Shown: piece by piece, positions 2,766 through 40,098 of the stretch
How the letters are laid out: each line of letters begins with the position of its first letter
Position numbering within the stretch: the stretch's first letter is position 1
Origin: Planctomycetota bacterium
GTDB lineage: Bacteria > Planctomycetota > UBA1135 > UBA2386
Direction: 5' to 3'
Length of the DNA stretch: 40,098 nucleotides
NCBI GenBank assembly: GCA_947501605.1
Contig: CANMWZ010000040.1
Coordinates: 1-40,098 of the forward strand
Notes under the pieces: model-generated
What the model was told of the DNA's origin: nothing
What the model saw: only the letters and a program-made list of their open reading frames with translations
The model's database searches: none
Position numbers and translations under genes: made by a program

Positions 2766-4604
2766 ATGCGCAATTCCATTGCTCTTGCCTGCTCTACCCT
2801 CGCGCTCGCGACCATTGCAAGCGCCCAGACATTCGTCTTTGCCCCGGACAATGCCGGGCTGACGCAGCCGTCGTCGTCGACGCTCGCCTGGCGTGACTCG
2901 ACGACCGGCTTCCGGTCGCAGTTCATCTACGACACGTCGCACTTCACGTCGGTCGGCGTCAACGGCCCGTGCGTCATCACCCGCATGCGCTTCCGCGCGG
3001 CCAATGCGAGCACTTCGGTCGGTGGCAGCTATCCGGGTGACGGCGTCACGACCGGCGCCACGGTCGACATCGGCACCAGCGCCTCGGACTACAACGCGGC
3101 CAGCACGACCTACGCGACCAACCGCGGCGTGATGCAGAACGTGCTGACGTTTGCGACCCTGCCCGTTGCCGCCGGTGCGGGCCTGACCCCGAACAACTAC
3201 GTCATCGACATCGTCATCCCCGGCGGCTTCGTTTACGACCCGACGGCCGGCCAAGACTTGCTCATCGAAGTTGCCGGCCCGGACTTCATCGGGACGATCC
3301 CGACGATGTCGACGGGTGTGTCGCTCGCGGCGAGCCGTTGCCAGCGCGTCGCCAACACGACGACGACGGGTCTTACCGGCACGTTCTCGGGTGGTTTCTG
3401 CCCCGTGGTGCTGTTCGACATCGTCGGGCCGGGCGGCATCCCGAACAACGGTTCGGGCAATCCGCTGCTGGTCGCCGCTGGCAACGCCAGCTACGGCACG
3501 GGCTGCGGGTTGACGTCGACGCGCTCGTTCGGCGAACTCTTCCCCGGGGGCGTCGGCACGAGCCTCGACCTCGGAACCGGCGTCACGCTGTTCCCGAACA
3601 TCCCTGGCGCACCGACGGCCTACACGGCGGTCGCTGGCAGTGGTGCTCCCTTCTTCCCGATCTCGGGCGCCGCGTTGCTGAGCAACGCTTTGACGCCGGC
3701 GCTGATGACGGACGATGCGATGTCGCAGGCCTGCACGCTGCCGTTCGCGTTCCCGTTCGTCGGCGGCTCGACCACGACGATCCACGCCAACACCAACGGC
3801 TACATCGCTCTGGCCGCAACGACTGCTACCGGCGGTGACTTCTCGCCGACGCTGACGGACATGGTCGGCGCTACGGCCGGCACCCACGGTGGCCTGCCGC
3901 GCATCTTCCCGTGCTGGTACGACCTGTACGCAAGCCGCAACACCACGGTCAATGCAACGGCCGGTGTGTACTTCAACGTCGACGCGGTCAACAACAAGGT
4001 CTACGTGACGTGGAACGACGTCGGTGAGTTGGCGACGTCCACCGCCGGAGCGAAGAGCTTCAACATCCAGGTCGAGCTCTCGCCGGACGGTACGATCGAC
4101 ATCCGCTACGGCGCGATGTCGGTGTTCGGCAGCACCACGCAAGGCAAGATCGTCGGCTTCACGCCTGGCCTGCCGTCGCCGGCACCCGCGAGCACCGACC
4201 TCTCGGTGGCGATGCCCTTCAGCTCGGGCTCGTTCGATAGCGCGCCCCTGGCCCTCGCGACGGGTGAGCCGATCATCGGTTCGAACATGGCGGTGACGAC
4301 CAACTTCGTCCCAGCTCCGGGCCTGCTGTTCAACATCATCAGCACGACCCAGTACAACCCGGGCATCGACCTCGGCATCGTGGGCGCGCCAGGCTGTCTG
4401 GCGCACGTCGATCCGGGCACCTCGGTCTATGACACGTTCTTGTTCGGCACCGGCACAGTTGCGTTCAACGTCGCGATCCCGAACGACATTTCGTTCCTGG
4501 GCGTCTCGCTCTACATGCAGTCGGCTGCAGTGGACCCGTTCTTCAACGCGTTCGGCTTCATCACCAGCAATGGCGTCACGCTGACGTTCGGCACGGTTCC
4601 CTGA
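2766..4604 (+). CDS. Secreted protein with a nidogen/NIDO-like domain and the lineage C-terminal module
   Basis: Signal peptide (ending IASAQ). The segment LPFAFPFVG...NTNGYI...FPCWYDL...VTWNDV...IQVELSPDGTIDIRYG is NIDO-like. C-terminus IPNDISFLG...Q...SNGVTLTFG. Confidence 0.8.
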   Translation: MRNSIALACSTLALATIASAQTFVFAPDNAGLTQPSSSTLAWRDSTTGFRSQFIYDTSHFTSVGVNGPCVITRMRFRAANASTSVGGSYPGDGVTTGATVDIGTSASDYNAASTTYATNRGVMQNVLTFATLPVAAGAGLTPNNYVIDIVIPGGFVYDPTAGQDLLIEVAGPDFIGTIPTMSTGVSLAASRCQRVANTTTTGLTGTFSGGFCPVVLFDIVGPGGIPNNGSGNPLLVAAGNASYGTGCGLTSTRSFGELFPGGVGTSLDLGTGVTLFPNIPGAPTAYTAVAGSGAPFFPISGAALLSNALTPALMTDDAMSQACTLPFAFPFVGGSTTTIHANTNGYIALAATTATGGDFSPTLTDMVGATAGTHGGLPRIFPCWYDLYASRNTTVNATAGVYFNVDAVNNKVYVTWNDVGELATSTAGAKSFNIQVELSPDGTIDIRYGAMSVFGSTTQGKIVGFTPGLPSPAPASTDLSVAMPFSSGSFDSAPLALATGEPIIGSNMAVTTNFVPAPGLLFNIISTTQYNPGIDLGIVGAPGCLAHVDPGTSVYDTFLFGTGTVAFNVAIPNDISFLGVSLYMQSAAVDPFFNAFGFITSNGVTLTFGTVP

Positions 4605-24780: not shown

Positions 24781-26508
24781 TCAGCGTAGCCACAGGCGCC
24801 GGTCCTCGGCTGCATCCTGATGACACTTGATGCACGACGCCACGTGGCCGGCGGCAGTCACCGTGCCGGCCCGATCGACGGTGCCGTAGACCCAGCCCGC
24901 GTCGGTGCCTTCCGTCTTGGCGTCGAGCTTGTGCATGACGAACAGCCCATGGAAGTCGCCGGCGTGGAACCAGGCGTCGCCCGATTGCATCCGCAGGGTC
25001 GACATGTAGCGGGCCGACGACTCGGTCGGTCCGTTCGGATCGCCGGGCATGCACTCCCACGACTCCTTGACCAGAGTCTGGCCGACCTTCTCGGGGGTGC
25101 CTTTGGTCACGTACTCGAGGCCGTCGGCGAAGCGCGCGTAGAGGAGGTAGAGCTTCTGGCCGTGCTCCTTCTCGGCGTCCGACTTGCGAACGAACGGGGG
25201 CGCGATGTAGCAGTCGGTGGGTGCGCGCTTGGGGTCGCCGGTCACGCGAACGAACTCGCGATACTGCGAAGCCGCGTCCACGACGATCTGCTCGAAGCGC
25301 GCGTCGACCTGGTTGCCCGCGGGAACCTGGACTTCGGTCGCGGCCGGCGGCACTGCCACCTTGCGGGTGAAGCCGCGCGCCGCCGCCTGCTGGCGGACGG
25401 CTTCGAGGACCGCCGTCTCGAACAGCTTGTCCCCGGACGTGCTGCGCTTCACCTGCTCGGCGATCACGAACGCATCGCGCTGCTTGCCGAGTTCGGCGAC
25501 CGTCGCCTGCAGCTCCGCGCGCTTCTTGCGTTGCCCCTCGACGTGCGCGCGCAGATCCGCGATCGACAGCGTCCGCAGCGCCTCGGGAAGGTCCTCCTTC
25601 TTGACGTCCTCGAGCTTGAACTTCGGGTCGGTGGTCGCATCGACGAGGTCCCAGTGGCCGCAGAAGTAGAGGCCCGAGGCCTTGGTCTGGCAGCGCTGCG
25701 CGGCGGCGGCGGGGTTGAGGTTCACGGCGTTGCCGTCCTGCGCCTGCTGGTTGCCCGTCCATTGCTCGCGCTGTGAGCCGTAGGGCACGTAGGTCGAGTT
25801 GATGAGGCCGCTGATCTCGGTGAGCTTGCCGTCGAACGGCGTCTCGATCACGACGGCTGCGTCCTTCTCGATCGCCGCGAACTGACCGTCGGCGAGCTTG
25901 GCGACCTCGCGCCAGGCCGGAGCGAGTTCGTCGGCGGGGTTGCCGCAGTAGATCGAGTTGACCACGATGCCGCGAGCGATGGCGTTCTTGCACGCGAGGG
26001 CGATCGCGATCGAAGGGTCCTGCGCGGCACTCTCGTTGCCGGCGACGAACAGCAGCCTCAACGCGTCGTTACGTTGCGACCACTGCAGTTCCGAGGCGGC
26101 CGCCTGCAGCACCCGCGCGACGTACTCTTCGCCGCCGTTGGTGGTCAGGGCGAACAGCTTCTGCGACACCAGGTCGAGGTCGGTGGTGAAGTCGGTCTCG
26201 ATCTTGACCCAGCCCTTCTCGGCCTCGTGCGCGGTGCAGCCGAAGGTCACGAGGGCAACCCTCAGGGTCGGCGTCGGCTGCAACGTCGCGAGGTCGTTGA
26301 CCACGGCCCAGAGGTTCTGGCGCGCGGCGTTGATGAGCCCGTCCATGCTGCCGCTGATGTCGAGACAGATGGCGAGGTCGATGGGCTTTTGCTCGGTCGA
26401 GGCTGCGACCATCGGCACCGCCGCGATGGGCGGGCCCACGATCGCCGGCGACTGCGCCAGCAGCGTTGCACACAGGAACGACGAGAACGAGAACAGGACG
26501 CGATTCAT
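24781..26508 (-). CDS. Secreted vWA-domain protein fused to a C-terminal cytochrome P460-like c-type haem domain
   Basis: MIDAS CLDISGSM, GGEEY and AGNES; C-terminal GQTLVKE, LFVMHK, GWVYG and CIKCH. Confidence 0.8.
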   Translation of the reverse strand: MNRVLFSFSSFLCATLLAQSPAIVGPPIAAVPMVAASTEQKPIDLAICLDISGSMDGLINAARQNLWAVVNDLATLQPTPTLRVALVTFGCTAHEAEKGWVKIETDFTTDLDLVSQKLFALTTNGGEEYVARVLQAAASELQWSQRNDALRLLFVAGNESAAQDPSIAIALACKNAIARGIVVNSIYCGNPADELAPAWREVAKLADGQFAAIEKDAAVVIETPFDGKLTEISGLINSTYVPYGSQREQWTGNQQAQDGNAVNLNPAAAAQRCQTKASGLYFCGHWDLVDATTDPKFKLEDVKKEDLPEALRTLSIADLRAHVEGQRKKRAELQATVAELGKQRDAFVIAEQVKRSTSGDKLFETAVLEAVRQQAAARGFTRKVAVPPAATEVQVPAGNQVDARFEQIVVDAASQYREFVRVTGDPKRAPTDCYIAPPFVRKSDAEKEHGQKLYLLYARFADGLEYVTKGTPEKVGQTLVKESWECMPGDPNGPTESSARYMSTLRMQSGDAWFHAGDFHGLFVMHKLDAKTEGTDAGWVYGTVDRAGTVTAAGHVASCIKCHQDAAEDRRLWLR

Positions 26509-28769
26509 CGGACGATCTCCATCGGGGTAAGGCTCTGCGCCGGTTGCACTGCGGGCGCGATCAGCACGTTCTTGCCGTCGACTTCGAGAAGGATCTCGCC
26601 GCCGAGCGACAGCACGCCGGTGCGACGTTCGCCCTGCAGGCGGTGCACGAGCGCGAAGTAGTCACTGCTGCCGAACTCGACGCGGCTGTCGGGTTCGAGT
26701 CGTTGCGCGATCACGGCATTGCCGTCGATCCAGCGGTCGCCGCGGCGCAGGAAGGCGCGATCGCACACCTGCTGCACGCTAGTCGTCTCGACGACCGTGA
26801 GGCTCTGGTCGAGGAACGCATTGCGCGGGTTGGCGCATGCCTGCAGCTTCTGCGCCCACAGGTTGCTGCCTTGGTTGTAGGCGCCGACGCCGCTGCGGGT
26901 CGCGATCGCGCGGCCGCTCAACGCGTCCTGACACGCGGTCGTGAGCGCGTTCCAGTCGTCGAGGCGGCTGCCTTCGGTGGCGAGGAATGCGGTGTATTCG
27001 CCGAGCACGCCGAAGCGGGTCGACAGGCGCAGGATCTCGTCGCGCAGTTCGCAGAGGCGCGGATCCGCGAATGGATCGGTGCCCGGCCGCTGCAGCGGGC
27101 CGCCGAGGTCGCCACCTTGCTGACGCAGCGCGTCGACGAGGAACGCGATCTGACGGCTCGCCCACAGACGCGGAACGAAGCCGTGCGCGAGCGATGCGTT
27201 GCGCACCGGCAGTGCGAAGCGGAAGGAGCGCGCGCCTTCGGGCCCGCGTCCCGACAACATGAAGTCGAGGTCGGCGTCGCCGCGGTAGCGTCCGAGCAGC
27301 ACGATCTGGTCGCCGGCGAACAAGTCCGGCAACGCGCGCGGCAGCAGATCGGCAATGCGCGAGGTCTCGTTCTTTGCGGTCTCGTGGGTGAGCTTCGGCT
27401 CGGCGAGCACTGGGTGGCCGAGCTTCGCGAACGTGCGCGCGACCTTCACCTCGACGTCTTCGTCGGGGAGCACGTAGGTGGTGACCGCGCGCGTCGCTTC
27501 GGCGATTGCGTCGAGCAACGGCACGTTGACGTCGTGACCGACGCCGAAGCTGAAGACGCGGCGCCCGTGCGGATTGCCGTTGGCGACCAGTGCCTTGAGC
27601 TCGCGTTCGCTGGTCGGGCCGACGGTCGGCAGGCCGTCGGTCAGAAACAGGACCAGCGGCAGCGTCCCTGGCATCGCCGGTGCCGATAGGGCTTCCTGCA
27701 GCGCGTCGTGGATGTTGGTGCCGCCGAGCGGACGGATGCCGTCGATGTAGGCGCGCGCCGCGGCCAGCGTGGTGGGGTTCTTTGCGACCGGTGCTGCGAA
27801 CGCGCGCGTGACGTCGTTGCCGTAGTCGAGGATCTGGATGCCCTCGCCGGGTTCGAGCGCCTCGAGGACCTGCAGCGCCGCGGCCTTCGCTTGGTCCATC
27901 TTCTTGCCGGCCATGCTGCCGGAGCGGTCGAGCACGAGGGTCACTTCGCGCAGCATGGACTTCTGCGTGGTGGCCGCGGGCGCGTTGGCCATCAGCAAGA
28001 ACCAGCCGCCGCCGATCGCGGCGTCCGGATAGGCGAATAGCGTCGCGGTCGGACGGTCCGCGGAGGTGACCGTCGTGTAGCTCAGTCGGAACGCGCCGGG
28101 CGAACGGCGGCTCGCTTCGGCGATCGTGAGCGAGCGCGCGCGCGGCTTCACGTTCGTGACCACGAGTTCGTGGCTGACCGAGTGACACAGGCCGATGTCG
28201 GCGCGAGCCTGCAGGTCGACGGTGATGGTCCACGGCACGTCGCTGCCGATCATCTCGCTGCGCGGCAGCACGTAGTCGGCGCGGTCGCCATCGACCTCGA
28301 GCAGGTGGTCGAAGGTCACGCGGATGCGCTGGTTGCCGTGCGCGGGTACCGGGAACACGCTACTGCGCAGGCAACCCCAGTCGGCGAACTCGAGCAGGGC
28401 CGGGTCCTTGAGTCGTCGCGTGATGTCGTCGTAGAGCGCGCGCGCTTCGTCGCGCGGCAGGATGCGGGCTTGCGGCGAAGCAGCTGCGCCTTCGAACGTG
28501 AACTGCGACACGGCGGCGCCGGCGGGAACCGGGAGCAGCACGACGGCTTCCTGGTCGCGGTGGCCGGGGTTGTGGAGTTGGAGTTCGAGCGTCGTCGTTG
28601 CGGCGCGGTCGACGATGCGAACGTGCGCTGTGACGGCGGTCACGCGGACGGGTTCGGTGCCGAACGGCACGAGAGCGGCGCGATGTGGAACGACCCACTG
28701 GTGGGGCGATTGCGCGGTCGCGGAGAGCGCTGCGCCGAAGATCGTGAACAGAACGGATAGAGCTCGCAT
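26505..28769 (-). CDS. Secreted VIT + vWA domain protein (inter-alpha-trypsin inhibitor-like)
   Basis: VIT region (LHNPG...EA...LPVP...DPALLE...VFPVP); vWA motifs LDRSGSM, GGTNI, LTDG and FGVG; RLWA. Its stop overlaps the next start. Confidence 0.88.
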   Translation of the reverse strand: MRALSVLFTIFGAALSATAQSPHQWVVPHRAALVPFGTEPVRVTAVTAHVRIVDRAATTTLELQLHNPGHRDQEAVVLLPVPAGAAVSQFTFEGAAASPQARILPRDEARALYDDITRRLKDPALLEFADWGCLRSSVFPVPAHGNQRIRVTFDHLLEVDGDRADYVLPRSEMIGSDVPWTITVDLQARADIGLCHSVSHELVVTNVKPRARSLTIAEASRRSPGAFRLSYTTVTSADRPTATLFAYPDAAIGGGWFLLMANAPAATTQKSMLREVTLVLDRSGSMAGKKMDQAKAAALQVLEALEPGEGIQILDYGNDVTRAFAAPVAKNPTTLAAARAYIDGIRPLGGTNIHDALQEALSAPAMPGTLPLVLFLTDGLPTVGPTSERELKALVANGNPHGRRVFSFGVGHDVNVPLLDAIAEATRAVTTYVLPDEDVEVKVARTFAKLGHPVLAEPKLTHETAKNETSRIADLLPRALPDLFAGDQIVLLGRYRGDADLDFMLSGRGPEGARSFRFALPVRNASLAHGFVPRLWASRQIAFLVDALRQQGGDLGGPLQRPGTDPFADPRLCELRDEILRLSTRFGVLGEYTAFLATEGSRLDDWNALTTACQDALSGRAIATRSGVGAYNQGSNLWAQKLQACANPRNAFLDQSLTVVETTSVQQVCDRAFLRRGDRWIDGNAVIAQRLEPDSRVEFGSSDYFALVHRLQGERRTGVLSLGGEILLEVDGKNVLIAPAVQPAQSLTPMEIVR

Positions 28770-28834: not shown

Positions 28835-28997
28835 TGGGGGCGGGTGGGGCCTCGGCGGGCGACGGCAGGGAGGGCCCCCGCGAATGCCCCCCGAGCCACC
28901 CAGTCGCTGGCCAAGGGAGACGGTCCAGGGAGACCTCTCGGGGCAACCACATTCCCCTGGGAGAGTGACTAAAGTGCCGTCACTTTTGTCGATAGAC

Positions 28998-29032
28998 TTG
29001 ACATTTATGACGGCAATTCGATCCTTAGGAGG
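28998..29032 (+). promoter_or_regulatory. Candidate sigma70 promoter and RBS for the AAA_14 gene
   Basis: Perfect TTGACA at 28998 in a locally AT-rich patch, a weak -10 (GATCCT) 16 nt later, and AGGAGG just before the ATG at 29034. Confidence 0.4.
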
Positions 29033-29033
29033 C

Positions 29034-30467
29034 ATGCGAAGAACGGCCTTCGACGACCTCCAGCAGTGGGCGACCGCGCCGGTGCATCGCCCCTTGGTCG
29101 TGCGCGGGGCGCGGCAGGTCGGCAAGACCTGGCTCCTCGAGGCCTTCGCGAAGGAGCATCTCGGCGACGTCGCAACGCTGGACGTCGAACGCCAGCGGGG
29201 CGTGCGCACCCTGTTCGCCGATCCTTCTCCGCGTGCCAACGTCGCTGCGATCGAAGCGGTGCTGGGCAAGCGGATCGAGCCAGGGCGCTGCCTCCTGTTC
29301 TTCGACGAGATCCAGGCCTGGCCGGAGCTGCTGGCTCGGTTGCGCTACTTCCACGAGGAGATGCCGGAGCTGCACGTGGCGGCCGCGGGATCGCTGCTCG
29401 ACTTCGCGCTGGCCGACCACACCGCGAGCATGCCGGTGGGACGGATCAGCTACCTGCACCTCGGGCCGATGTCGTTCCCGGAGTTCGTGACGGCGATCGC
29501 AGGAGAGCGGACGACGCAGTATCTGCGCACGATTCGAGTCGGGCAGGTGCCGCCTGAACCGATCCACGAGCGGCTCTCGGCGCTGATGCGCGACTACTCG
29601 CTCGTCGGCGGGATGCCGGCCGTGGTCGAGGCCTTCCGCACGTCGCGGTCTTTCGTCGACGCGAGTCGCGTGCAGCAGGACCTGATGGCCACGTACCGAG
29701 ACGACTTCGCTCGCTACGGGGAGCGAGCGTCGCGAGAACGGCTGCAGCGGGTGCTCGACTCCGTGGCGAGGCAGGTCGGCGGCAAGTTCGTGTGGTCGGC
29801 AGTGGATCCCGAAGAGCGCGCAGCGGCTCTACGCCCGGCTCTCGAGGCGCTGTGTCGCGCGCGGGTCTGTCGCTACGTGCGTTGCAGTCACGGTAACGGG
29901 ATCCCGTTGGGTGCCGACGTCGTCGACAAGCACTTCAAGGTTGCACTCGTCGACACGGGGCTGCTGCAGAGTTCGCTCGGAGTGCTCGTGGGGGCGAGGG
30001 TTGCCCCTGGCGAACTCGTCAACGAAGGGCCGGTGGCCGAGCACCTGGTCGGACAACTGCTGGCCGACCTGTCTCCGCGCTTCGTCGAGCCTCAGCTGTG
30101 GTACTGGGCGCGTCAGCGGCAGGGGGCGGAGGCCGAAGTGGACTACCTGCTGCAGCACGGGGCCGATGTGATCCCGGTCGAAGTGAAGGCAGGGGCCACA
30201 GGGACGCTGCGCAGTCTGCATCGATTCGTGCACGAGACGGGGTCGAAGGTGGCGGTTCGCGTGAGCAGTGCACCGCCACAACTGGCGACGGTGTCGACCA
30301 ATCTGGTAGGGCAGACGCCGCACGAGTTCCAGTTGTTGTCGATCCCGTTCTATCTGGTGCCGGAACTGCCGCGGCTGTTGGAGGAAGTGAAGGCAGGGGC
30401 GAATCTGCCGGAGAAGACGGAGCGCGCGGCGTCCGTTCGCAAGCGAAGGAAGTCGAGCGATCGTTGA
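29034..30467 (+). CDS. AAA_14 ATPase with DUF4143 and a C-terminal PD-(D/E)xK-like motif
   Basis: Walker A GARQVGKT, Walker B FFDEIQ, AAGS, PMSF.EF, VGGMP, DTGL and AEVDYLL...IPVEVKAG. Confidence 0.9.
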   Translation: MRRTAFDDLQQWATAPVHRPLVVRGARQVGKTWLLEAFAKEHLGDVATLDVERQRGVRTLFADPSPRANVAAIEAVLGKRIEPGRCLLFFDEIQAWPELLARLRYFHEEMPELHVAAAGSLLDFALADHTASMPVGRISYLHLGPMSFPEFVTAIAGERTTQYLRTIRVGQVPPEPIHERLSALMRDYSLVGGMPAVVEAFRTSRSFVDASRVQQDLMATYRDDFARYGERASRERLQRVLDSVARQVGGKFVWSAVDPEERAAALRPALEALCRARVCRYVRCSHGNGIPLGADVVDKHFKVALVDTGLLQSSLGVLVGARVAPGELVNEGPVAEHLVGQLLADLSPRFVEPQLWYWARQRQGAEAEVDYLLQHGADVIPVEVKAGATGTLRSLHRFVHETGSKVAVRVSSAPPQLATVSTNLVGQTPHEFQLLSIPFYLVPELPRLLEEVKAGANLPEKTERAASVRKRRKSSDR

Positions 30468-33179: not shown

Positions 33180-33270
33180 GAATGGACTCCCTGCATGCCC
33201 CTGCTCGGGGCAAAACTGAATACCGAAGTCACCGCCGCAACTGCGGGATGACGGTTGCACTCGATGGCGA

Positions 33271-33430
33271 CTAGCCCTGCTCGCCGCCCACCGCCGTCGA
33301 GGCCGCGAAGCCGAACGGCAGTCCGGTCGGCCAGGAGACGGGCAGCGAAATCCCCACCTGCTGGCGACAGCACGAACACGCCGAGCTCGACATCAGGCGA
33401 GGACACCAGCGAACACTGACAGGGAACGGA
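33271..33430 (-). pseudogene. Possible frameshifted remnant of a secreted-protein C-terminal module
   Basis: SLVSSPDVELGVFVLSPAG in one frame joins GISLPVSWPTGLPFGF in another frame across a G-run. Confidence 0.3.
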
Positions 33431-33654
33431 ACGCAGTTCGTCATGCAGGTCACCACGGGCGGGGGGCGTGAGACGGAGCCCCTCCACTGCTGTTGCGCCA
33501 GCAGCGCCGCCGACCGGTCAAGAATCCGGCAGTCGATCTGCGGCCGGTGGGCTGCACCGAGGGTCCGCTGCTCGCCGCTGCCGTGGCACACGGTGCGCCG
33601 TCGCTCGAGGCGAGTAGAGTGCGGCACGTGAGTCGCCTCAGTTACCCGCCCCTC

Positions 33655-34065
33655 ATGGGAATCCAGGGCAGCAAGTCGGCATTGATCGATCCGCCGGACT
33701 GGACCTGGTTGGTCGCCGTTTCCGTGCTGGGCACGGTCGGCGCGTTGGTCGGGCTCGCCCTCGCGCGATGGATGCGTGTCGGGCGCAGATTCCTCTTCCT
33801 GCGACTCGCCGCGGGCCAGGCCGTCTGCTGGCTCCTGCTCATGTTCCACGGATACTCGGTCATCACGCAGGCGTACGGCAACCGGTCCCGTGGCAGTTAC
33901 TTCGCGATCGTCGCGGCCCTGCTGCTCGTGCCTTGGTGCGGCACTTGGATCGCATTGCGCGGTGCCACGCCGAGGGCCAGATTCGTGCATTGCGTCGCGC
34001 TTGCCTACCTCCCGTTCCTCGCGGTCGCGGGGTTGCTCCGGATCTACGGCTTCTTGATCCACTGA
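33655..34065 (+). CDS. Hypothetical membrane protein (about 4 TM helices)
   Basis: Four hydrophobic segments; no recognised motif; start uncertain. Confidence 0.5.
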   Translation: MGIQGSKSALIDPPDWTWLVAVSVLGTVGALVGLALARWMRVGRRFLFLRLAAGQAVCWLLLMFHGYSVITQAYGNRSRGSYFAIVAALLLVPWCGTWIALRGATPRARFVHCVALAYLPFLAVAGLLRIYGFLIH

Positions 34066-34273
34066 CCGAGCCGTCGAGGGCCGAGGACCGGCTGCCGCCG
34101 CGCGAGTGGGTTGCGAGCGAACGGGTGGTCGCGTGACCGGCAATGCTGCGCCTCGCGAGCGCACGTCCTGCGCGGAAGCGACCGCGGCCGCGAGAAGACA
34201 GCTATGCTTGCCGCCCATGGTCGCGGGGTAGATCCGCGACTGCGATCACCCTCACCGCGCCCCGAAGGATTCC

Positions 34274-34504
34274 ATGCGCTCCCGCCTCTGCTTGCTCCCT
34301 CGGGTCCGTTCCTTCTCACTGCTCGTGTTGCTCGTAGCGTCGGCAACGAGTGCTGTGGCGCAGTGTGCTCTGCAGTGGCAGCAGGGGTCGTTGGTCGGGT
34401 TGCTGGCGCGCGCGCAGGTGATGTCGATCGAGCTCACGCCGCAGCTGACGGGCTCGGCGATCACGACTACCAATGCGATCGACTTCACGGTCGGGCAGTT
34501 CTGA
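34274..34504 (+). pseudogene. Internally deleted secreted-protein gene (signal peptide joined directly to the C-terminal module)
   Basis: Signal peptide and AQCALQWQQG run straight into SLVG....Q....TTNAIDFTVGQF; only 76 aa. Confidence 0.55.
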
Positions 34505-34573
34505 TTCGATCCTCATCCTGCATCGTCCAGAGACACAGCCGCTTCGATCCTCGATCGAGCACTTGATGCGCCG

Positions 34574-34730
34574 ATGACCGTTTCCGCGGAGCAGACCGTC
34601 GCGACGCTGCGTGCGCGGGCAAGCGTAGTGCGCGCGGCTCATCGGCTCGCTCGTCTGGGCCGGGTTCGGCGAACACAGTGACATCGATCTGGTGCTGCGC
34701 GGAGCCGATTCTTCGCGGGTCGCAGCGACG
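34574..34730 (+). pseudogene. Frameshifted minimal nucleotidyltransferase (MNT) antitoxin remnant
   Basis: The ATG at 34574 gives MTVSAEQTVATLRARA. A different frame from 34638 gives LIGSLVWAGFGEHSDIDLVLRG, the GS-x10-DxD Pol-beta motif. Confidence 0.68.
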
Positions 34731-34848
34731 AACTTTGCGCCGGATCCAAGCCACTCCGAATTGCAGACTCGGAAGATCGGGCTCGGTCCCTCCCGCCCGT
34801 ACGCCACACCGCGCACCCCGCATGACACACTTCGCGCGCCCCCACCTC

Positions 34849-34876
34849 TGGACACCGCGCGCAATCTGCCGATACT
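34849..34876 (+). promoter_or_regulatory. Candidate sigma70 promoter for the riboswitch leader
   Basis: TGGACA-N16-GATACT, placing a transcription start near 34883, just before riboswitch P1. Confidence 0.4.
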
Positions 34877-34884
34877 CCTCCTCA

Positions 34885-35010
34885 GCATCCAGACGGCCCC
34901 GCGGACAACCAACGGGCGGCCAACCTGCCGAGGAGCGGCAAGGTGGTAAGTCGAGGCCGAGTGGCCGAGACGATGCGCGCGGGCGAGTGTCCCGGCGAAC
35001 GAAGGCTCCT
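34885..35010 (+). promoter_or_regulatory. SAM riboswitch, SAM-I clan (SAM-I/IV-like)
   Basis: P1 GCATC (34885) / GATGC (34972); J1/2 core ATCCAGA; P3 GCC-AA-CC-TGCCG / CGGCA-A-GG-T-GGT followed by AA; P4 GGCC-gagt-GGCC; P5 hairpin at about 34978-34997; 3' GCTCCT (35005-35010) complementary to the P3 loop AGGAGC (PK-2). It lies upstream of an operon containing a MetK homologue. Confidence 0.82.
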
Positions 35011-35030
35011 GCGGCGCGCGTCGCCGCTTT
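35011..35030 (+). terminator. Putative riboswitch expression-platform terminator
   Basis: GCGGCG-cgcgt-CGCCGC-TTT immediately after PK-2 and before the RBS (GAGGA) and ATG at 35054; short U-tract. Confidence 0.5.
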
Positions 35031-35053
35031 GGGTGCATGCCGAGGAACTCAGC

Positions 35054-36817
35054 ATGTCCACCGCGAAGTCCGCAGCCGCTGCGACCCCGTCCCTGTCGAT
35101 CCGCGTCGACGGCGACAACCCCGACCACCACCTGTTCCAGAACCGCGGCACTTGGTGGATCCACTACACCGAGCACCGCGGCAACAAGAAGGAGCGCAAG
35201 CGCCAGTCGCTGAGGACGCGCGACGTCGTCGAGGCGCGCTCGGGGCGCGATGCGCTGTTTGCGCGCATGCGCGCCGGCGGGGCCTCGCTGGCCGAGGACG
35301 CGGCGCCGGGGGCGACACCATCGGCGGCCGGTCCGGCCGTCGCGAACGCAGCCCCACTCGCCGACCCCGCCCGCGCGCGTTCGCAACTGCTGCGTCCGCT
35401 CGGCCTCGAGGGCTGGGACGAACTCGAACCCGTCGTGCTCGCGTCGCTGTGCGCCGAGGCGCCGCTGCTCCTCGTCGGGCCGCACGGCAGCGCCAAGAGC
35501 TTCGCGCTCGAGCGCCTCGCGGCCTCGCTCGGTCTCCGTTTCCGCGCCTACAACGCCAGCCTGCTGCACTTCGACGACCTCGTCGGCATCCCGTTGCCCG
35601 ACGAGAGCGGCAAGGGGCTGCGCTACGTCTCGACGCCGACGTCGATCTGGGACGCCGAGGTCGTGTTCATCGACGAACTCAACCGCACCAGGCCCGAGCT
35701 GCAGAACAAGATCTTCCCGATCGTCCACGAACGGCGCGTGCAGGGCGTGTCGCTGACGGCGCTGCGCCACCGTTGGGCGGCGATGAACCCGCCCGTGCGC
35801 GAGGAGACGAGGCCCGGCGAGGCCAACTACCTCGGCGCCGAGCCGCTCGATCCCGCACTGGCGGATCGCTTCGCCTTCGTCGTCGAGGCGCCGTCGTGGG
35901 GCGAGTTGTCGACCGCGCAGCAGAAGCGCGTGCTGCAGGGTTCGCTGCGGCAGGGTGGGCAGCCGCTCGCCGACGTGAAGCCCTTCGTCGAACGCGCGCG
36001 GCGTTGGTTCTTGCTGCTGCGCGAGGCCGCGCCGGCACGCCTCGTCGACTACTTCGTGGCGCTCGAACAGCAGCGGCGCAGTGCGGGGGCCGTGCCCTTC
36101 TCGACGCGGCGCATGGCCATGCTGCTGCAGAACGCGCTCGCCGTGCAGGCTGCGCGCGCCGCGCTCGCTGAGGTCGCGGGCGGCGAGGTCGCCGTGCGCA
36201 CGGTCGACTGGGAGACCTCCGTCTGGCTCGCGTTCCTGCACGGCTCGCCGACGCTCGCCGAGACCGGGACCCTTGATCGCGCGGTGATGCGCGCCTTCCA
36301 CCGCCAGGCCTGGGCCGTGTGCGGCCTCGCCGAGGGCGATCCGTGGCGCGAACTGCTGACGATCGCCGATCCCGTCGAGCGCGCGCTGCGCGCCGTGGCG
36401 CTCGGACTCGTCGTCACCGACGAGCAGCTCGGCCAGCTCGTGGTCGACGGCGTCGAGAGCGTGGCCGTGCCGGCGCACCGCGATGCCACCGCGCTCGCGC
36501 TCTACCTCGCCGTGCATCGCGAACGCGCGTTGCCCGCGATCGCCGTCGAGTCGCTGGCGCAACGCATCGCGCGTGTGTTGGCACCGGTGCAGCGCGACGT
36601 CACGTTGCCGACTGCGCAGGCCGGGCTCGCGCGCGAAGTGGGCCAGCTCGAGGCCGAGGGCACGGGAAATCCCGCGCGCGACGCCTACGTGCGCAACTTG
36701 CTCGAGGCGCTGCTGCCCGACGGCTACGCGGGTACGTCGCCGCGTGAGGTGCGCGATCGCTTCGTGCGCCTGTGGGACCGGCTGCAGCTCGGCCTGCGCC
36801 TGGAGGTGGCCGCGTGA
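35054..36817 (+). CDS. MoxR/RavA-like AAA+ ATPase with an N-terminal arm-type DNA-binding-like domain
   Basis: Walker A GPHGSAKS, Walker B VFIDELNR, sensor AMNP and Arg finger LDPALADRF; N-terminal NPDHHLFQNRGTWWIHY...RKRQSLRTRDVVEAR; RBS GAGGA. Confidence 0.88.
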   Translation: MSTAKSAAAATPSLSIRVDGDNPDHHLFQNRGTWWIHYTEHRGNKKERKRQSLRTRDVVEARSGRDALFARMRAGGASLAEDAAPGATPSAAGPAVANAAPLADPARARSQLLRPLGLEGWDELEPVVLASLCAEAPLLLVGPHGSAKSFALERLAASLGLRFRAYNASLLHFDDLVGIPLPDESGKGLRYVSTPTSIWDAEVVFIDELNRTRPELQNKIFPIVHERRVQGVSLTALRHRWAAMNPPVREETRPGEANYLGAEPLDPALADRFAFVVEAPSWGELSTAQQKRVLQGSLRQGGQPLADVKPFVERARRWFLLLREAAPARLVDYFVALEQQRRSAGAVPFSTRRMAMLLQNALAVQAARAALAEVAGGEVAVRTVDWETSVWLAFLHGSPTLAETGTLDRAVMRAFHRQAWAVCGLAEGDPWRELLTIADPVERALRAVALGLVVTDEQLGQLVVDGVESVAVPAHRDATALALYLAVHRERALPAIAVESLAQRIARVLAPVQRDVTLPTAQAGLAREVGQLEAEGTGNPARDAYVRNLLEALLPDGYAGTSPREVRDRFVRLWDRLQLGLRLEVAA

Positions 36818-37362
36818 TCGCCGACGAACTCTGCTGCGATCTACCGCTCGGCCGCGATCCGCTCGACGCGTTCGCCAACATGTGCGTGCCGCCGCGCACG
36901 GTGGTGAAGTCGACGCAGGTCGCGATCTCGGGCCGCGTGCTGTTGTTCAGCATGCTGGGCGCGTGCCACCACCTCGGCCTCGTCGTGTCGAACCAGCTCG
37001 CCCAGGCCAAGGCCGAGGTCGAATCGCGCTGGGGCAAGCAGGTCGACGCGTTCCTGCAGGACGTCGAGGCGCGCGGCTACCTGGCCAACCGCGCCGAGGC
37101 CGAACGCACGCTCGCGTCGTGGCGCGGCCCAGTGATCGGTTCGCGGCCGCAACTCGGTCGCATGCCCGGGCCGACGCGCGCGATCTGCACCGACCTCGGC
37201 TTCGCCATCGCCGTGCTGGCGCGCGTGCACGGCAACCTACTGCTGCCGTCGCGCGCGCCGACCCTCACCTGGCCGCGCCTGTTCGACGTCGTGTTCGGCC
37301 TCGACGACGCGCGCGCCAACCACGTCCCTGCCTACGTCTATCCCGAACCGGAGCTGCGATGA
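36814..37362 (+). CDS. Hypothetical protein (182 aa), operon member
   Basis: GTG start overlaps the upstream stop (GTGA) with a GGAGGT RBS; its own stop overlaps the next ATG (ATGA); GC3-rich codon use. Confidence 0.75.
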   Translation: MIADELCCDLPLGRDPLDAFANMCVPPRTVVKSTQVAISGRVLLFSMLGACHHLGLVVSNQLAQAKAEVESRWGKQVDAFLQDVEARGYLANRAEAERTLASWRGPVIGSRPQLGRMPGPTRAICTDLGFAIAVLARVHGNLLLPSRAPTLTWPRLFDVVFGLDDARANHVPAYVYPEPELR

Positions 37363-38900
37363 ACTTCGTCGACGAACGCGCGCTCGACCCGCGCGCGCAG
37401 GAACTGCGGCGCCGCGTGCTCGAGGTCCTTCCCGCCGGCGGCTACCAGCTCGACCGACTCTTCCGCCTGCTCGACATCGAGGTCACCGACGAGGTCGAGA
37501 CCGCCGAAGTCACCGTCGGCCTCGTGTCGCGCATGCGCTTCAACCCGCGCTTCGTCGAACGGCACTGCGCCACCGACGAGCGCCTGTTCGTGCTCGTGCT
37601 GCACGAACTGCTGCACGTCGTGCTCGGGCACACGCGCCTGTTCCCGAAGCCGAGCTACGCGCACAACATCGCCTTCGACGCGGTGATCAACGCGATGATC
37701 GCGCGGCAGCATCGGGAACCGGAGTTCCTCGAACTGCTGCGCGAGGTCAACGCGTGGACCGACTTCCCGTCGCGATTGCTGCGGCCGGCGCCGGGCTGGC
37801 CCGAGAAGCCCGAGCCGATGCCGAGCGACGCGACGAAGGCCGAACGCGAACTACACGCCCGGCTCTACGGCAAGGACAGCAAGGACGTCACCTACCACGA
37901 GCTATTCGATCTGCTCGCGCAGTGCGTCGACGAACGTGCGCCCGGCCCCGCGCGCCTGCTCGGCGGCCACGGCCAGGGTGCGGGAGGCGAGGCGGACGGT
38001 GGTGGCACGAACGAGTTCTTCGACGGCGACGAGGCCGTCGACCCGACCTTGCGCGACGTGCTCGCGCGCATCGTGCGCGAATGGCCGGCACCCTTCCGCG
38101 AGCAGATGCTCGACCGCGGCCAGAAGGCGCACGACCTGCGGCTTCAGAGCGCGCAGCCCGCCGATGCGGCACTCGAACGCGCGCTACTCGAGTTCTTCGA
38201 ACGCGCGGGCATCGCCGCGCTCGCACGGCGCACGCGACTGCGCCGTACGACGGCGGAGCACACGTCGTGGTCGGTCGTGCCGCAGGGCGCGGACCGGCGC
38301 GGCCACGTGCGGACGTTGTGCCTCGGCCGCCCGCCGCTGTTTTGGGAGGCGCCCTCGACGCGGACCTCGCGCCTGCGTTCGCCGGTTCCGGCTGCGTTCG
38401 TGTACCTCGACGTCAGCGGCTCGATGGACCCGTACCTCGGCGCGCTGCGGTCGGCTCTGCGCAAGCCCGTGCGCGAAGGGGCTGCGCGCCTGTTCTCGTT
38501 CAGCACGATGGTCGCGGAGATCGACGTGCGCACGTTCGGCACGCGCGCGACGCGATCGACGGGCGGCACCGACGTCGACGCCGTGCTGCAGCACGTGCTT
38601 GCCCTTTCGGCACGCGAACGGCCGCAGCGCATCGCCATCGTCACCGACGGCTTCGTCGGCAAGCCGCGCGCCGACCACGTGCGCCAACTCGCGGCGCGCG
38701 GCATCGGCGTGCACGTGGCGCTGGTCGCCAATGGCCGCCGCGCCGATCTCCAGGCGATCGCGCAGCGCCTGGTCGAGCTGCCAGCACCGGCCTCGCGGCC
38801 GAGTCAGAACGTTTCCGCGCCTGCCACTGCACCGGCCCCGACCTCTGTCGCGGCAGCACCGCTTCCGACGCCGACTCCCGGCCAAGGCCCTTCTCGATGA
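37359..38900 (+). CDS. Putative metallopeptidase (HExxH, DUF2201-like) plus vWA domain protein, MoxR partner
   Basis: FNPRFV...LHELLHVVLGH...NIAFDAVIN; C-terminal vWA motifs YLDVSGSM, GGTD and IVTDG; true start is the ATG at 37359. Confidence 0.88.
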   Translation: MNFVDERALDPRAQELRRRVLEVLPAGGYQLDRLFRLLDIEVTDEVETAEVTVGLVSRMRFNPRFVERHCATDERLFVLVLHELLHVVLGHTRLFPKPSYAHNIAFDAVINAMIARQHREPEFLELLREVNAWTDFPSRLLRPAPGWPEKPEPMPSDATKAERELHARLYGKDSKDVTYHELFDLLAQCVDERAPGPARLLGGHGQGAGGEADGGGTNEFFDGDEAVDPTLRDVLARIVREWPAPFREQMLDRGQKAHDLRLQSAQPADAALERALLEFFERAGIAALARRTRLRRTTAEHTSWSVVPQGADRRGHVRTLCLGRPPLFWEAPSTRTSRLRSPVPAAFVYLDVSGSMDPYLGALRSALRKPVREGAARLFSFSTMVAEIDVRTFGTRATRSTGGTDVDAVLQHVLALSARERPQRIAIVTDGFVGKPRADHVRQLAARGIGVHVALVANGRRADLQAIAQRLVELPAPASRPSQNVSAPATAPAPTSVAAAPLPTPTPGQGPSR

Positions 38901-40090
38901 CCACGCCAACTCTCGTCCCCTCGCGCGCGGCCGTCGCCGCGCACCCCAGTGCCATCGCCGTGCAGCACGTGCACACGGCCGAATGGGTCTCGCCGGGCCA
39001 TCCCGATCGGCTCGCCGACGCGATCGCCGACCGCGTCGTGCGCCACGCCGTGGCCCTCGACCGCGAGGCCCTCGTCGGCGTCGAGGTGGCGTTGCACCGC
39101 CGCCGCGTATTCGTCGACGGCCGCATCGCCGCGCGCGGCATCGGCAATGCCGACGAGTGGCTGCCGCCGCTCGTGCAAAAGGTCTACGCCGAGGCAGGGC
39201 ACGGTGCTCATTGGGCGCCCGCGCCCGACGAACTCGCGATCGACCACGACCTTTGCCTCGACGACCTGAGTCGCGACGAACGCACGGCCCGCGGCGTCGC
39301 CGACGACCAGAACGTGGTGATCGGCTGGGCCGGTCGCGACGAACGCACGCGCTTCCTGCCGCCGGCGCACTTCCTCGCGGGCGAGCTCGGCGCCGCGGTG
39401 TGGCGCTTTCGCTGCGAGCACGCCGAGCACTTCGGCCCGGACTTCAAGCTGCTGCCGCAGCTCGACGAACTCACCGACGGCTCCCTGCGCTGGCGCCGCC
39501 TCGTGTTGTCGCTGCAGCACCGCGCCGACGTGGGCTACGAACGCCTACACCGCGAACTGCTGCCCGTGCTGCGCGCCGTGCTCGAGGCGCACGAACAGAA
39601 TGGCCTCGTCGGCGCCGCCTCGACGTTCGCCCCGCACGTCTTGCACTGCAACGGCGCGGGCTCGTTCGTGCTCGGCGGCCCGCTCGGGGACAACGGGCTG
39701 TCGGGCAAGAAGCTCGTGGTCGACCACTACGGCCCCGACGTGCCCATCGGCGGCGGCGCGATCTACGGCAAAGACCCGCACAAGATCGACCGCGCCGGCG
39801 CCGTTCGCGCGCGGCAATGGGCGGTGGATCTGCTGCAGCAGGAGCGAACGCGCGGCGTGCGCGAGGTGCGGACGAGGCTGTGCTGGTCGCCCGGCGACGC
39901 GGCCCCGAGTTTCGTCGAGGCCCAGACGCGCGACGCGGCGGGGCTGTGGCGGCGCGTGGCCGAGGACCAGCTGCCGCCGCGCGAGTGGTTTGCGATCGAA
40001 CGCGTGGTCGCGGAGTTGCTGGACCAGGGCGTCGACGCGTTCGCGGCGCCGGGTGCGAGTGGGTTCGTTCCGGGCGGGGTGTTGCCGTGA
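38897..40090 (+). CDS. Divergent methionine adenosyltransferase (MetK-like paralogue)
   Basis: TAEWVSPGHPDRLADAIAD, DQ, PDFK and GGPLGDNGLSGKKLVVDHYG...GGGAIYGKDPHKIDR; ATGA overlap with the upstream gene. Confidence 0.9.
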   Translation: MTTPTLVPSRAAVAAHPSAIAVQHVHTAEWVSPGHPDRLADAIADRVVRHAVALDREALVGVEVALHRRRVFVDGRIAARGIGNADEWLPPLVQKVYAEAGHGAHWAPAPDELAIDHDLCLDDLSRDERTARGVADDQNVVIGWAGRDERTRFLPPAHFLAGELGAAVWRFRCEHAEHFGPDFKLLPQLDELTDGSLRWRRLVLSLQHRADVGYERLHRELLPVLRAVLEAHEQNGLVGAASTFAPHVLHCNGAGSFVLGGPLGDNGLSGKKLVVDHYGPDVPIGGGAIYGKDPHKIDRAGAVRARQWAVDLLQQERTRGVREVRTRLCWSPGDAAPSFVEAQTRDAAGLWRRVAEDQLPPREWFAIERVVAELLDQGVDAFAAPGASGFVPGGVLP

Positions 40091-40098
40091 GCGATCCT

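Follow-up and report, generated by a model that had tools for sequence, protein, structure and literature searches.

A SAM-I/IV-type riboswitch precedes a portable cassette of MoxR-class ATPase, zincin-vWA and MetK-like genes in uncultured bacteria

Riboswitches for S-adenosylmethionine (SAM) are understood to regulate genes for enzymes and transporters of methionine, cysteine and SAM. The Planctomycetota contig CANMWZ010000040.1 raises the question of what such an RNA does in front of genes for a putative protein-remodelling machine. The stretch analyzed (the window) is the entire contig of 40,098 bases, and it belongs to a metagenome-assembled genome (MAG) of 4.65 Mb that is 91% complete. 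In the last 5 kb of the contig, a SAM-I/IV-type aptamer precedes a cassette of four + strand genes (GC content at third codon positions 0.87-0.91) for a MoxR-class AAA+ ATPase, a small conserved protein, a zincin domain fused to a vWA domain and a divergent MetK paralogue. The SAM riboswitch here would govern a machine for protein remodelling and proteolysis along with a modified SAM synthetase, and the complete unit appears to move between phyla together with its switch. The features of the cassette are as follows.

34883-35012, + strand: SAM-I/IV-type riboswitch aptamer (subthreshold match to RF01725 and own covariance model)
34885-34889 with 34972-34976, + strand: aptamer helix P1, from the hand-built structure
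+ strand, within the same hand-built structure: further aptamer helices P2, P3, P4-I hairpin and P4-IV
34931-34936 (P3 loop) with 35005-35010, + strand: aptamer pseudoknot of six pairs
35013-35064, + strand: inferred expression platform, with GGGTGCAT at 35031-35038 complementary to the start-codon region, the Shine-Dalgarno (SD) sequence GAGGA at 35043-35047 and ATG at 35054
35054-36817, + strand: gene for a MoxR-class AAA+ protein with an N-terminal Arm-like domain, 587 amino acids
35054-35310, + strand: Arm-type (integrase N-terminal-like) DNA-binding-like domain, fused to the AAA+ protein in the window
36814-37362, + strand: gene for a small conserved protein, 182 amino acids, fold unassigned
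37359-38900, + strand: zincin-vWA gene, with HELLHVVLGH and the metal ion-dependent adhesion site (MIDAS) DVSGS
38897-40090, + strand: gene for a MetK-fold paralogue, 397 amino acids

An Rfam scan of the window at the gathering level gave no match. In E-value mode, RF01725 matches positions 34880-35013 at 26.2 bits (E 0.1; gathering cut-off 41.1), a score that is insufficient alone, and we accepted the leader as a real aptamer because of comparative evidence from its relatives. These were collected in a scan of one genome per species, which yielded 109 MetK-like relatives, the best 80 of which were kept as loci. MAFFT alignment of all leaders misaligned their 3' half; a covariance model, R1, was therefore built instead from seven consistent sequences, with helices P1, P2, P3, P4-I and P4-IV set by hand. 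In the alignment of these seven close relatives 224 of 231 pair cells are standard (33 pairs in each sequence) and the helices hold in every one. The six pseudoknot pairs are standard in all seven as well, with compensatory A-U/C-G/G-C swaps at both ends, and inspection by eye showed this complementarity in other subgroups too.

Model R1 scores the window at 125 bits (E 7.7e-23), by construction since the window is a training sequence. In 917 kb of sequence it found 54 matches at E≤1. Among the 51 loci that have the AAA gene and at least 650 nt upstream of it, a + strand match lies upstream in 41 at E≤0.01 and in 45 at E≤1. Across 53 distinct sequences, 94.5% of cells are paired and 31 of the 33 pairs change on both sides, in an alignment fitted to R1, which favours pairing; the margins over the controls are large, as none of 500 shuffles reaches the observed level and sliding the partner by 1-3 columns lowers pairing to 36-44%. 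The core letters of the SAM clan (CAU, GA, CAACCU, AAGGUG and GAUG) are invariant in 21 sequences. These comparisons identify the leader at 34883-35012 as a real SAM-I/IV-class aptamer. An earlier note, made from the letters of the window, had proposed a SAM-clan riboswitch at this place, and the covariance test bears it out.

The leader shares with the SAM-I/IV class (RF01725, clan CL00012) the P1-P3 core, the CAACCU/AAGGUG pairing of P3, a P4 that follows P1 and the pseudoknot between the P3 loop and the 3' tail. The simple P2 described for the SAM-I/IV variant in the text of Weinberg et al. (2010, PMC2864571) is found here also. The leader differs in a long P4-I insert and a variable P2, and for this reason RF01725 scores low in the window and exceeds its cut-off in only three of 11 related loci (45.9, 41.6 and 41.2 bits), each time directly 5' of the cassette operon. 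The Rfam model therefore under-detects this long-insert subgroup, reaching its cut-off in 3 of 11 loci where R1 and covariation show an aptamer. The genes controlled differ too, being those of a remodelling machine and not those of methionine, cysteine or SAM enzymes or transporters. The text of Weinberg et al. and the part of its supplements that was searched give no gene context for SAM-I/IV, and the supplements may list these downstream genes.

Riboswitches of the SAM-I clan are OFF switches, and the layout 3' of the aptamer is consistent with this. Hairpins followed by a U-run, typical of terminators, are found 3' of the aptamer in seven low-GC loci. In the window, a predicted hairpin (-27.7 kcal/mol) encloses the SD sequence and pairs with the AUG, and the same hairpin-over-start layout is seen in the GC-rich relatives L009, L010 and L011. 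An alternative pairing of the expression platform with the 5' strand of P1 was read by eye. From this layout and the nature of the clan we infer OFF-switch logic for the leader. The conserved core and the terminators predict that it binds SAM and represses the cassette genes; since the aptamer keeps the invariant core of the clan, the signal sensed is most likely SAM itself. The products of the cassette would then be wanted at low SAM, and induction under low SAM, as the earlier note had it, is supported to this extent.

Within this genome R1 matches only the cassette locus, and no second aptamer was detected. RF01725, RF00162 and RF00521 matched nothing in it, although control genomes were likewise empty for RF01725 and RF00521, which makes both of these negatives weak. 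The leader of the canonical metK gene had no Rfam match at E≤1 other than a chance match to c-di-GMP-II. Elsewhere, a strong SAM-I/IV-type R1 match (52.7 bits) lies about 2.4 kb downstream of the cassette and on the opposite strand (L042:10497-10622, - strand). Another locus, L062, has two SAM-I/IV aptamers on one strand, at 1869-1998 before a divergent MetK (346 bits) and at 3447-3572 before the cassette.

The four cassette genes are joined by overlaps of four nucleotides, GTGA at 36814 and ATGA at 37359 and 38897, just as the earlier note had described, and these overlaps mark them as translationally coupled. We place the start of the AAA+ gene at ATG 35054, which has GAGGA 7 nt 5' of it; the frame is also open from GTG 34943. 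A further GTGA is present at 40087, and the contig ends 11 bases further on. The earlier note had taken this to suggest a fifth gene. The overlap does exist, but the open reading frames (ORFs) 3' of the cassette vary in strand and family across loci and are not conserved in relatives, and a fifth gene was therefore not counted in the unit. A metagenome scan for DNA beyond position 40098 returned only 42-45% relatives.

A direct repeat of 55 bp (93% identical) links positions 34079-34133 and 39958-40012 of the window. The upstream copy, about 750 bp before the riboswitch, encodes AEDRLPPREWVASERVVA, which corresponds to the 3' part of the MetK-like gene. The repeat may have been left behind by an earlier or tandem copy of the cassette or by the insertion event. 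Beyond this one repeat, no other remnants of a second cassette were found upstream in the window.

All 80 loci come from MAG or uncultured-bacterium assemblies. The titles of the carrier records name more than 10 phylum-level groups, and include Planctomycetota, several Verrucomicrobiota classes, Lentisphaerae, Kiritimatiellia, Nitrospira, Alpha-, Delta- and Gammaproteobacteria, Gemmatimonas, Actinomycetota, Rokubacteria, Chloroflexota, Acidobacteriota and Spirochaetales. Among the 55 loci that have 4.2 kb or more of upstream sequence, 48 keep the order AAA, small protein, full zincin-vWA and MetK-like, so that the synteny on which the earlier note had staked its operon is borne out; the other seven (L020, L023, L061, L065, L069, L082 and L088) are decayed or truncated. 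Of 25 shorter loci, 22 have an adjoining vWA gene and three have less than 100 nt upstream. A profile of the small protein was positive in four of 401 sampled genomes of the phylum, this genome included, and a single small-protein query against 40 close relatives gave no convincing match. Viral contigs and plasmids were negative for the MetK-like gene. The fixed gene order and patchy spread characterize the cassette as a fixed unit that is accessory and portable.

The product of the first gene is recognizable as a MoxR-class AAA+ ATPase. It matches the Pfam family AAA_5 (2.3e-9, 37.8 bits against a cut-off of 22), whereas AAA_3 and bpMoxR stay below their cut-offs (bpMoxR 22.3 against 27), and by sequence it is nearest to RavA (E 0.004). 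The AAA+ core spans approximately residues 122-280 and is followed by a long helical C-terminal region. Walker A is present in all 51 AAA+ homologues, and the strict Walker B pattern in 28 of the 51; the window reads VVFIDELNR.

The N-terminal 80 or so residues of this protein correspond in 11 loci to a separate ORF of about 75 amino acids with its own stop codon. Matches to this domain were found in 26 of the 80 loci. Among 24 members, DUF6538 was matched by 22 (best 1.4e-5, below the cut-off of 27 bits), Arm-DNA-bind_3 by four and AP2 by one; the Atlas label 'Integrase family protein' (0.88) is a lead only, and no sequence match was found in the PDB. The domain thus weakly resembles the Arm-type DNA-binding domains of integrases.

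The small protein carries the motifs NMSxPPRT, FLIGW and AFDDP. A word-based search for its relatives gave six proteins, but iteration of a hidden Markov model (HMM) and a profile search of a full library of 1.84 billion proteins revealed a far larger family, present in 58 of 59 cassettes (iterated HMM) and in 589 representative clusters at E≤0.001 (profile search). The AlphaFold2 model is a confident one, with a predicted local distance difference test (pLDDT) score of 86 and a predicted TM score of 0.78. Its fold has no match in the PDB (best Foldseek E 2.4; no chain at Z≥2 in the wide VIA-align search), the Atlas holds no usable match, and no Pfam, NCBIfam or PADLOC match falls below E 0.06. 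We considered the methionine of the NMS motif as a possible substrate and dropped it, as a tyrosine stands there in two of the sequences shown. A complex prediction for the MetK-like and small proteins scored 0.00, which is uninformative either way and gives no verdict.

The third protein combines a zincin-like metallopeptidase domain with a vWA domain that has a MIDAS, as its motifs indicate: HExxHxxxxH and the MIDAS DxSGS are each present in 59 of 59 homologues. It matches VWA_CoxE exactly at the cut-off (5.4e-6, 26.4 bits) and DUF2201_N (PF13203) weakly (0.0015, 18.6 bits against a cut-off of 23.2). The best structural match of its model (pLDDT 78.6) is the NorD vWA domain in NorQD complexes (E 2e-5). 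Genes of the DUF2201 type also occur beside cassettes of two Terrimicrobiaceae-type loci: an AAA_3 and DUF2201_N+DUF2201 pair lies directly upstream of the cassette in L034:526-2873, and only DUF2201_N+DUF2201 was seen in L039:803-1921. The papers on DUF2201 that were found are unrelated by title.

The fourth protein contains the three S-AdoMet synthetase domains of Pfam and belongs to a set of more than 1178 relatives. It matches PDB entries of MetK at 1e-29 and weaker, and it shares with bacterial MetK (TIGR01034) the three-domain fold, the catalytic histidine, the metal and triphosphate ligands and the phenylalanine that stacks on adenine. It scores 127.3 bits with TIGR01034, however, against a curated cut-off of 309.4, and is a second copy beside a canonical MetK of 581 bits on contig C2 of this genome, an answer to the earlier note's question whether a separate metK exists. 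Of the other carriers, 13 were tested and 12 likewise have a canonical metK of more than 500 bits elsewhere in the genome; the remaining one has only a fragment at a contig edge.

We compared 73 MetK-like with 11 canonical sequences. The equivalents of His14, Asp16, Glu42, Asp163, Lys165, Phe230, Asp238, Lys245, Lys265, Lys269 and Asp271 are kept in at least 90% of the 73. The Glu55 position is arginine in at least 90% of the 73, the Gln98 gating loop is not conserved and the C-terminal YGHFG motif is lost. According to passages of PMC1282579 and PMC3853416, Glu55 and Asp238 of MetK contact the amino group of methionine, and Gln98 and Lys269 its carboxylate; the roles of the catalytic, metal, triphosphate and adenine residues follow in part PMC3853416. 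The pattern indicates that the MetK-like protein keeps the ATP, triphosphate and metal side of the active site and has an altered methionine pocket. The earlier note overlooked this pocket, as well as the small-protein family and the separate N-terminal gene of many relatives.

Further genes with a link to SAM or methionine are found at some loci. The riboswitch and MetK unit of L062 lies directly 5' of the cassette's own riboswitch. In two Opitutae-type operons under the riboswitch, the Arm-like ORF is separated from the AAA gene by an additional gene for a canonical-type MetK (L015:2540-3643, 471 bits; L030:2490-3626, 476 bits), and a housekeeping MetK copy is additionally present in G444. 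The canonical-type MetK of the L015 operon reads GNPDK, with asparagine in place of His14. In L049 (8171-9064) a gene for homoserine O-succinyltransferase (MetA, 280 bits) follows the MetK-like gene on the same strand after 67 nt. DUF3293 recurs, as a separate gene that ends 15 nt before the aptamer (L019:2310-2990) and as a fusion to the MetK-like protein in P0011 and P0012, each of 515 amino acids.

The flanks of the cassette at 26 loci, taken to a distance of 4.5 kb, contain 208 ORFs, and the first 150 of these were scanned with PADLOC (E≤1e-12). Matches were obtained in 17 ORFs at 11 of the 26 loci, and include SspD (387 bits), DpdE (605 bits) with QueC, DndB/DndC, a type II methylase (528 bits), DrmMII, AbiLii, a BrxL fragment and type IV restriction-like proteins. 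For the control, arbitrary 9-kb regions were taken from carrier genomes (19 of 20 regions and 120 of 128 ORFs covered), and five ORFs in five regions matched. All five are of generic kinds, namely mad2/3/8, a ShosA/DprA-like protein and a desaturase model. The contrast between flank and control is clearer for hallmark DNA-modification genes, a category defined after the data had been seen. Decayed remnants of the cassette adjoin AIPR+DUF4420, DarT-Macro with a transposase, and an integrase. The defence island that the earlier note had envisaged does not surround the cassette in the window, where the neighbours are ordinary, but about 40% of flanks elsewhere hold defence genes. PADLOC assigned the cassette proteins to no system model: against PADLOC-DB 2.0 none of the four had a convincing match (best mad8 0.0011, then PDC-S05 0.024), and two had none.

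Pairs of a MoxR-class AAA+ protein and a vWA partner are known from several systems. NorQD and CbbQO are client-specific remodellers. The cassette resembles NorQ-NorD, CbbQ-CbbO and RavA-ViaA in that a MoxR-class AAA+ gene adjoins a gene for a vWA/MIDAS protein, which in turn adjoins a candidate client enzyme; its vWA protein is structurally closest to NorD and its AAA+ protein nearest in sequence to RavA. It differs in the zincin on the vWA partner, the extra small protein, the optional Arm-like domain, the putative MetK-fold client and the riboswitch. With the MoxR-vWA ternary conflict systems, as presented in the main text of Kaur et al. (2020, PMC7159879), it has in common a MoxR and vWA core with a peptidase, a patchy spread and defence-gene neighbours. 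However, the cassette has no VMAP, STAND or beta-propeller third component, and its bpMoxR score is below the cut-off. The same text describes metallopeptidases as rare and most vWA-fused peptidases as inactive, whereas the cassette motif is kept in 59 of 59 homologues, and it makes no mention of MetK, SAM synthetase or a riboswitch. Searches of the literature on SAM riboswitches, MoxR/vWA pairs and MetK paralogues yielded no description of the cassette, in line with the earlier note, which knew of no described system with this architecture.

The reading we prefer, though we rate it somewhat below an even chance, is that the cassette is a low-SAM rescue module in which the AAA+, vWA-zincin and small proteins form a machine that serves a MetK-family client. 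The cassette would be a self-contained, horizontally moving response to low SAM. When SAM is bound, P1 would close and a terminator (in low-GC relatives) or the start-codon hairpin (in the window) would form, as the layout suggests, so that the operon would be made only under SAM scarcity. The MoxR-class ATPase and its vWA/MIDAS partner would, judging from their families, act as a client-specific remodeller like NorQ-NorD and CbbQ-CbbO, with the small protein in an adaptor-like role and the zincin domain carried by the vWA partner. The most likely client would be a MetK-family enzyme, namely the MetK-like protein encoded in the cassette itself and perhaps also the MetK of the cell. The proposal of a MetK client follows from the MoxR/vWA architecture, the likeness to NorD and the fixed adjacency, the MetK-fold protein being the sole constant enzyme. 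The output would be SAM synthesis restored once the ordinary supply fails, whether the cause is nutritional or inflicted, for example by phage SAM lyase or MetK inhibitors. We consider an inflicted cause about as probable as a nutritional one, given how often the cassette and its decayed remnants are surrounded by genes for DNA modification and other kinds of defence.

A number of observations count against this proposal. On the RNA side, the window's own aptamer is below the Rfam cut-off (26.2 against 41.1 bits), six of the 51 loci (L041, L058, L070, L074, L079 and L086) have no R1-detectable aptamer, the start-codon hairpin is no better than in shuffled sequence (z -0.86), and thermodynamic folds of the leaders show no switch. 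The defence-neighbour signal is modest when any match is counted (11 of the 26 loci, compared with 5 of the 19 control regions). With arginine at the Glu55 position and the Gln98 loop changed, the product of the MetK-like protein may not be SAM, and the cassettes with an added canonical-type MetK argue that this protein is not simply a spare synthetase. A pure chaperone model leaves the zincin motif, which is always kept, unexplained, and neither NorD nor CbbO has such a constant motif as a feature. The proposed model also assigns no role to the Arm-like domain, which about half of the loci lack (26 of 80 gave a match). Because the zincin motif, the methionine pocket, the optional Arm-like domain and the canonical-MetK cassettes are left unexplained, other explanations stay alive.

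Low SAM could be an alarm for a SAM-degrading phage, on which the MoxR/vWA pair would activate a harmful effector, either the zincin or runaway ATP and methionine use by the MetK-like protein, and growth of the infected cell would stop. We regard this as unlikely. It would fit the PADLOC matches in the flanks of 11 of 26 loci, against generic ones in 5 of 19 control regions, the remnants beside AIPR+DUF4420, DarT-Macro with a transposase and an integrase, and the rare and patchy distribution (4 of 401 genomes); MoxR-vWA pairs with peptidase effectors are moreover a known conflict theme in the main text of Kaur et al. (2020, PMC7159879). However, the best PADLOC match of any of the four proteins is an unconvincing 0.0011, the cassette of the window has ordinary neighbours, viral contigs and plasmids yielded no MetK-like gene, and the category of hallmark genes was picked after the data had been seen. 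The catalytic residues of the MetK-like protein are all conserved, as expected of a working enzyme, and MetK and MetA have been recruited to the operon. A related possibility starts from the SAM loss that phages inflict; phage T3 SAM lyase lowers SAM and inhibits MetK. The riboswitch might sense a fall in SAM caused by such a lyase or by MetK inhibitors, the MetK-fold protein might be inhibitor-resistant or a bait, and the AAA+/vWA-zincin machine might dismantle the phage factor, which would keep restriction-modification, BREX, Dnd/Ssp and Dpd immunity working. We think this counter-counter-defence rather improbable.

An explanation centred on the altered pocket, which we judge quite doubtful, is that the MetK-like protein adenosylates not free methionine but, for example, a methionine analogue without the usual amino or carboxyl contacts or a peptide-bound thioether, and that the cassette makes or salvages a SAM-related sulfonium. 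The arginine at position 55 and the unconserved Gln98 loop, next to an intact ATP side, are in keeping with a shift of substrate, as are the fusions with DUF3293 in P0011 and P0012; canonical MetK within some cassettes implies that the two MetKs are not redundant. Yet the invariant aptamer core makes SAM the most likely signal, the equivalents of Asp238 and Lys269 are kept, the arginine could take over binding of the methionine carboxylate, and the neighbours point to no candidate substrate. It is far less probable, in our view very improbable, that the target of the zincin is a regulator, the Arm-like DNA-binding protein or a different one, whose cleavage in the manner of ImmA/ImmR-type pairs reprograms transcription at low SAM, with the MetK-like protein as a SAM or ATP sensor and not an enzyme. 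The Arm-like domain does head the operon as a separate small gene in 11 loci, and the zincin motif is invariant (59 of 59), but the domain is missing in about half of the loci with the rest of the unit unchanged, the catalytic residues of the MetK-like protein are strictly conserved, and no homology to ImmA/IrrE was seen in Pfam or the structural search.

If the AAA+/vWA machine does serve a MetK-family client, a central metabolic enzyme would join the short list of MoxR clients. If the trigger is SAM loss inflicted by phage, the cassette would represent an arms-race response gated by a metabolite riboswitch, of a kind that the literature searches did not turn up. The cassette may have gone unnoticed because all carriers found are uncultured.

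The remainder of the window contains ordinary genes, including those for an SNO amidotransferase, peptidases, beta-lactamase-fold proteins, two-component systems, a DEAD helicase, VIT/vWA proteins and an FGE-sulfatase. The AAA_14 gene mentioned in the earlier note was confirmed by domain matches:

28884-30464: AAA_14+DUF4143

The stretch 33260-34880 is gene-poor apart from a short frame at 34680-34760 that reads DIDLVLRGAD and by eye resembles a nucleotidyltransferase (MNT) remnant, in keeping with the earlier note. At 24781-28766, on the - strand, there are two adjoining vWA proteins unrelated to the cassette, one combining VIT with vWA and the other carrying a C-terminal cytochrome P460-like stretch behind its vWA domain.

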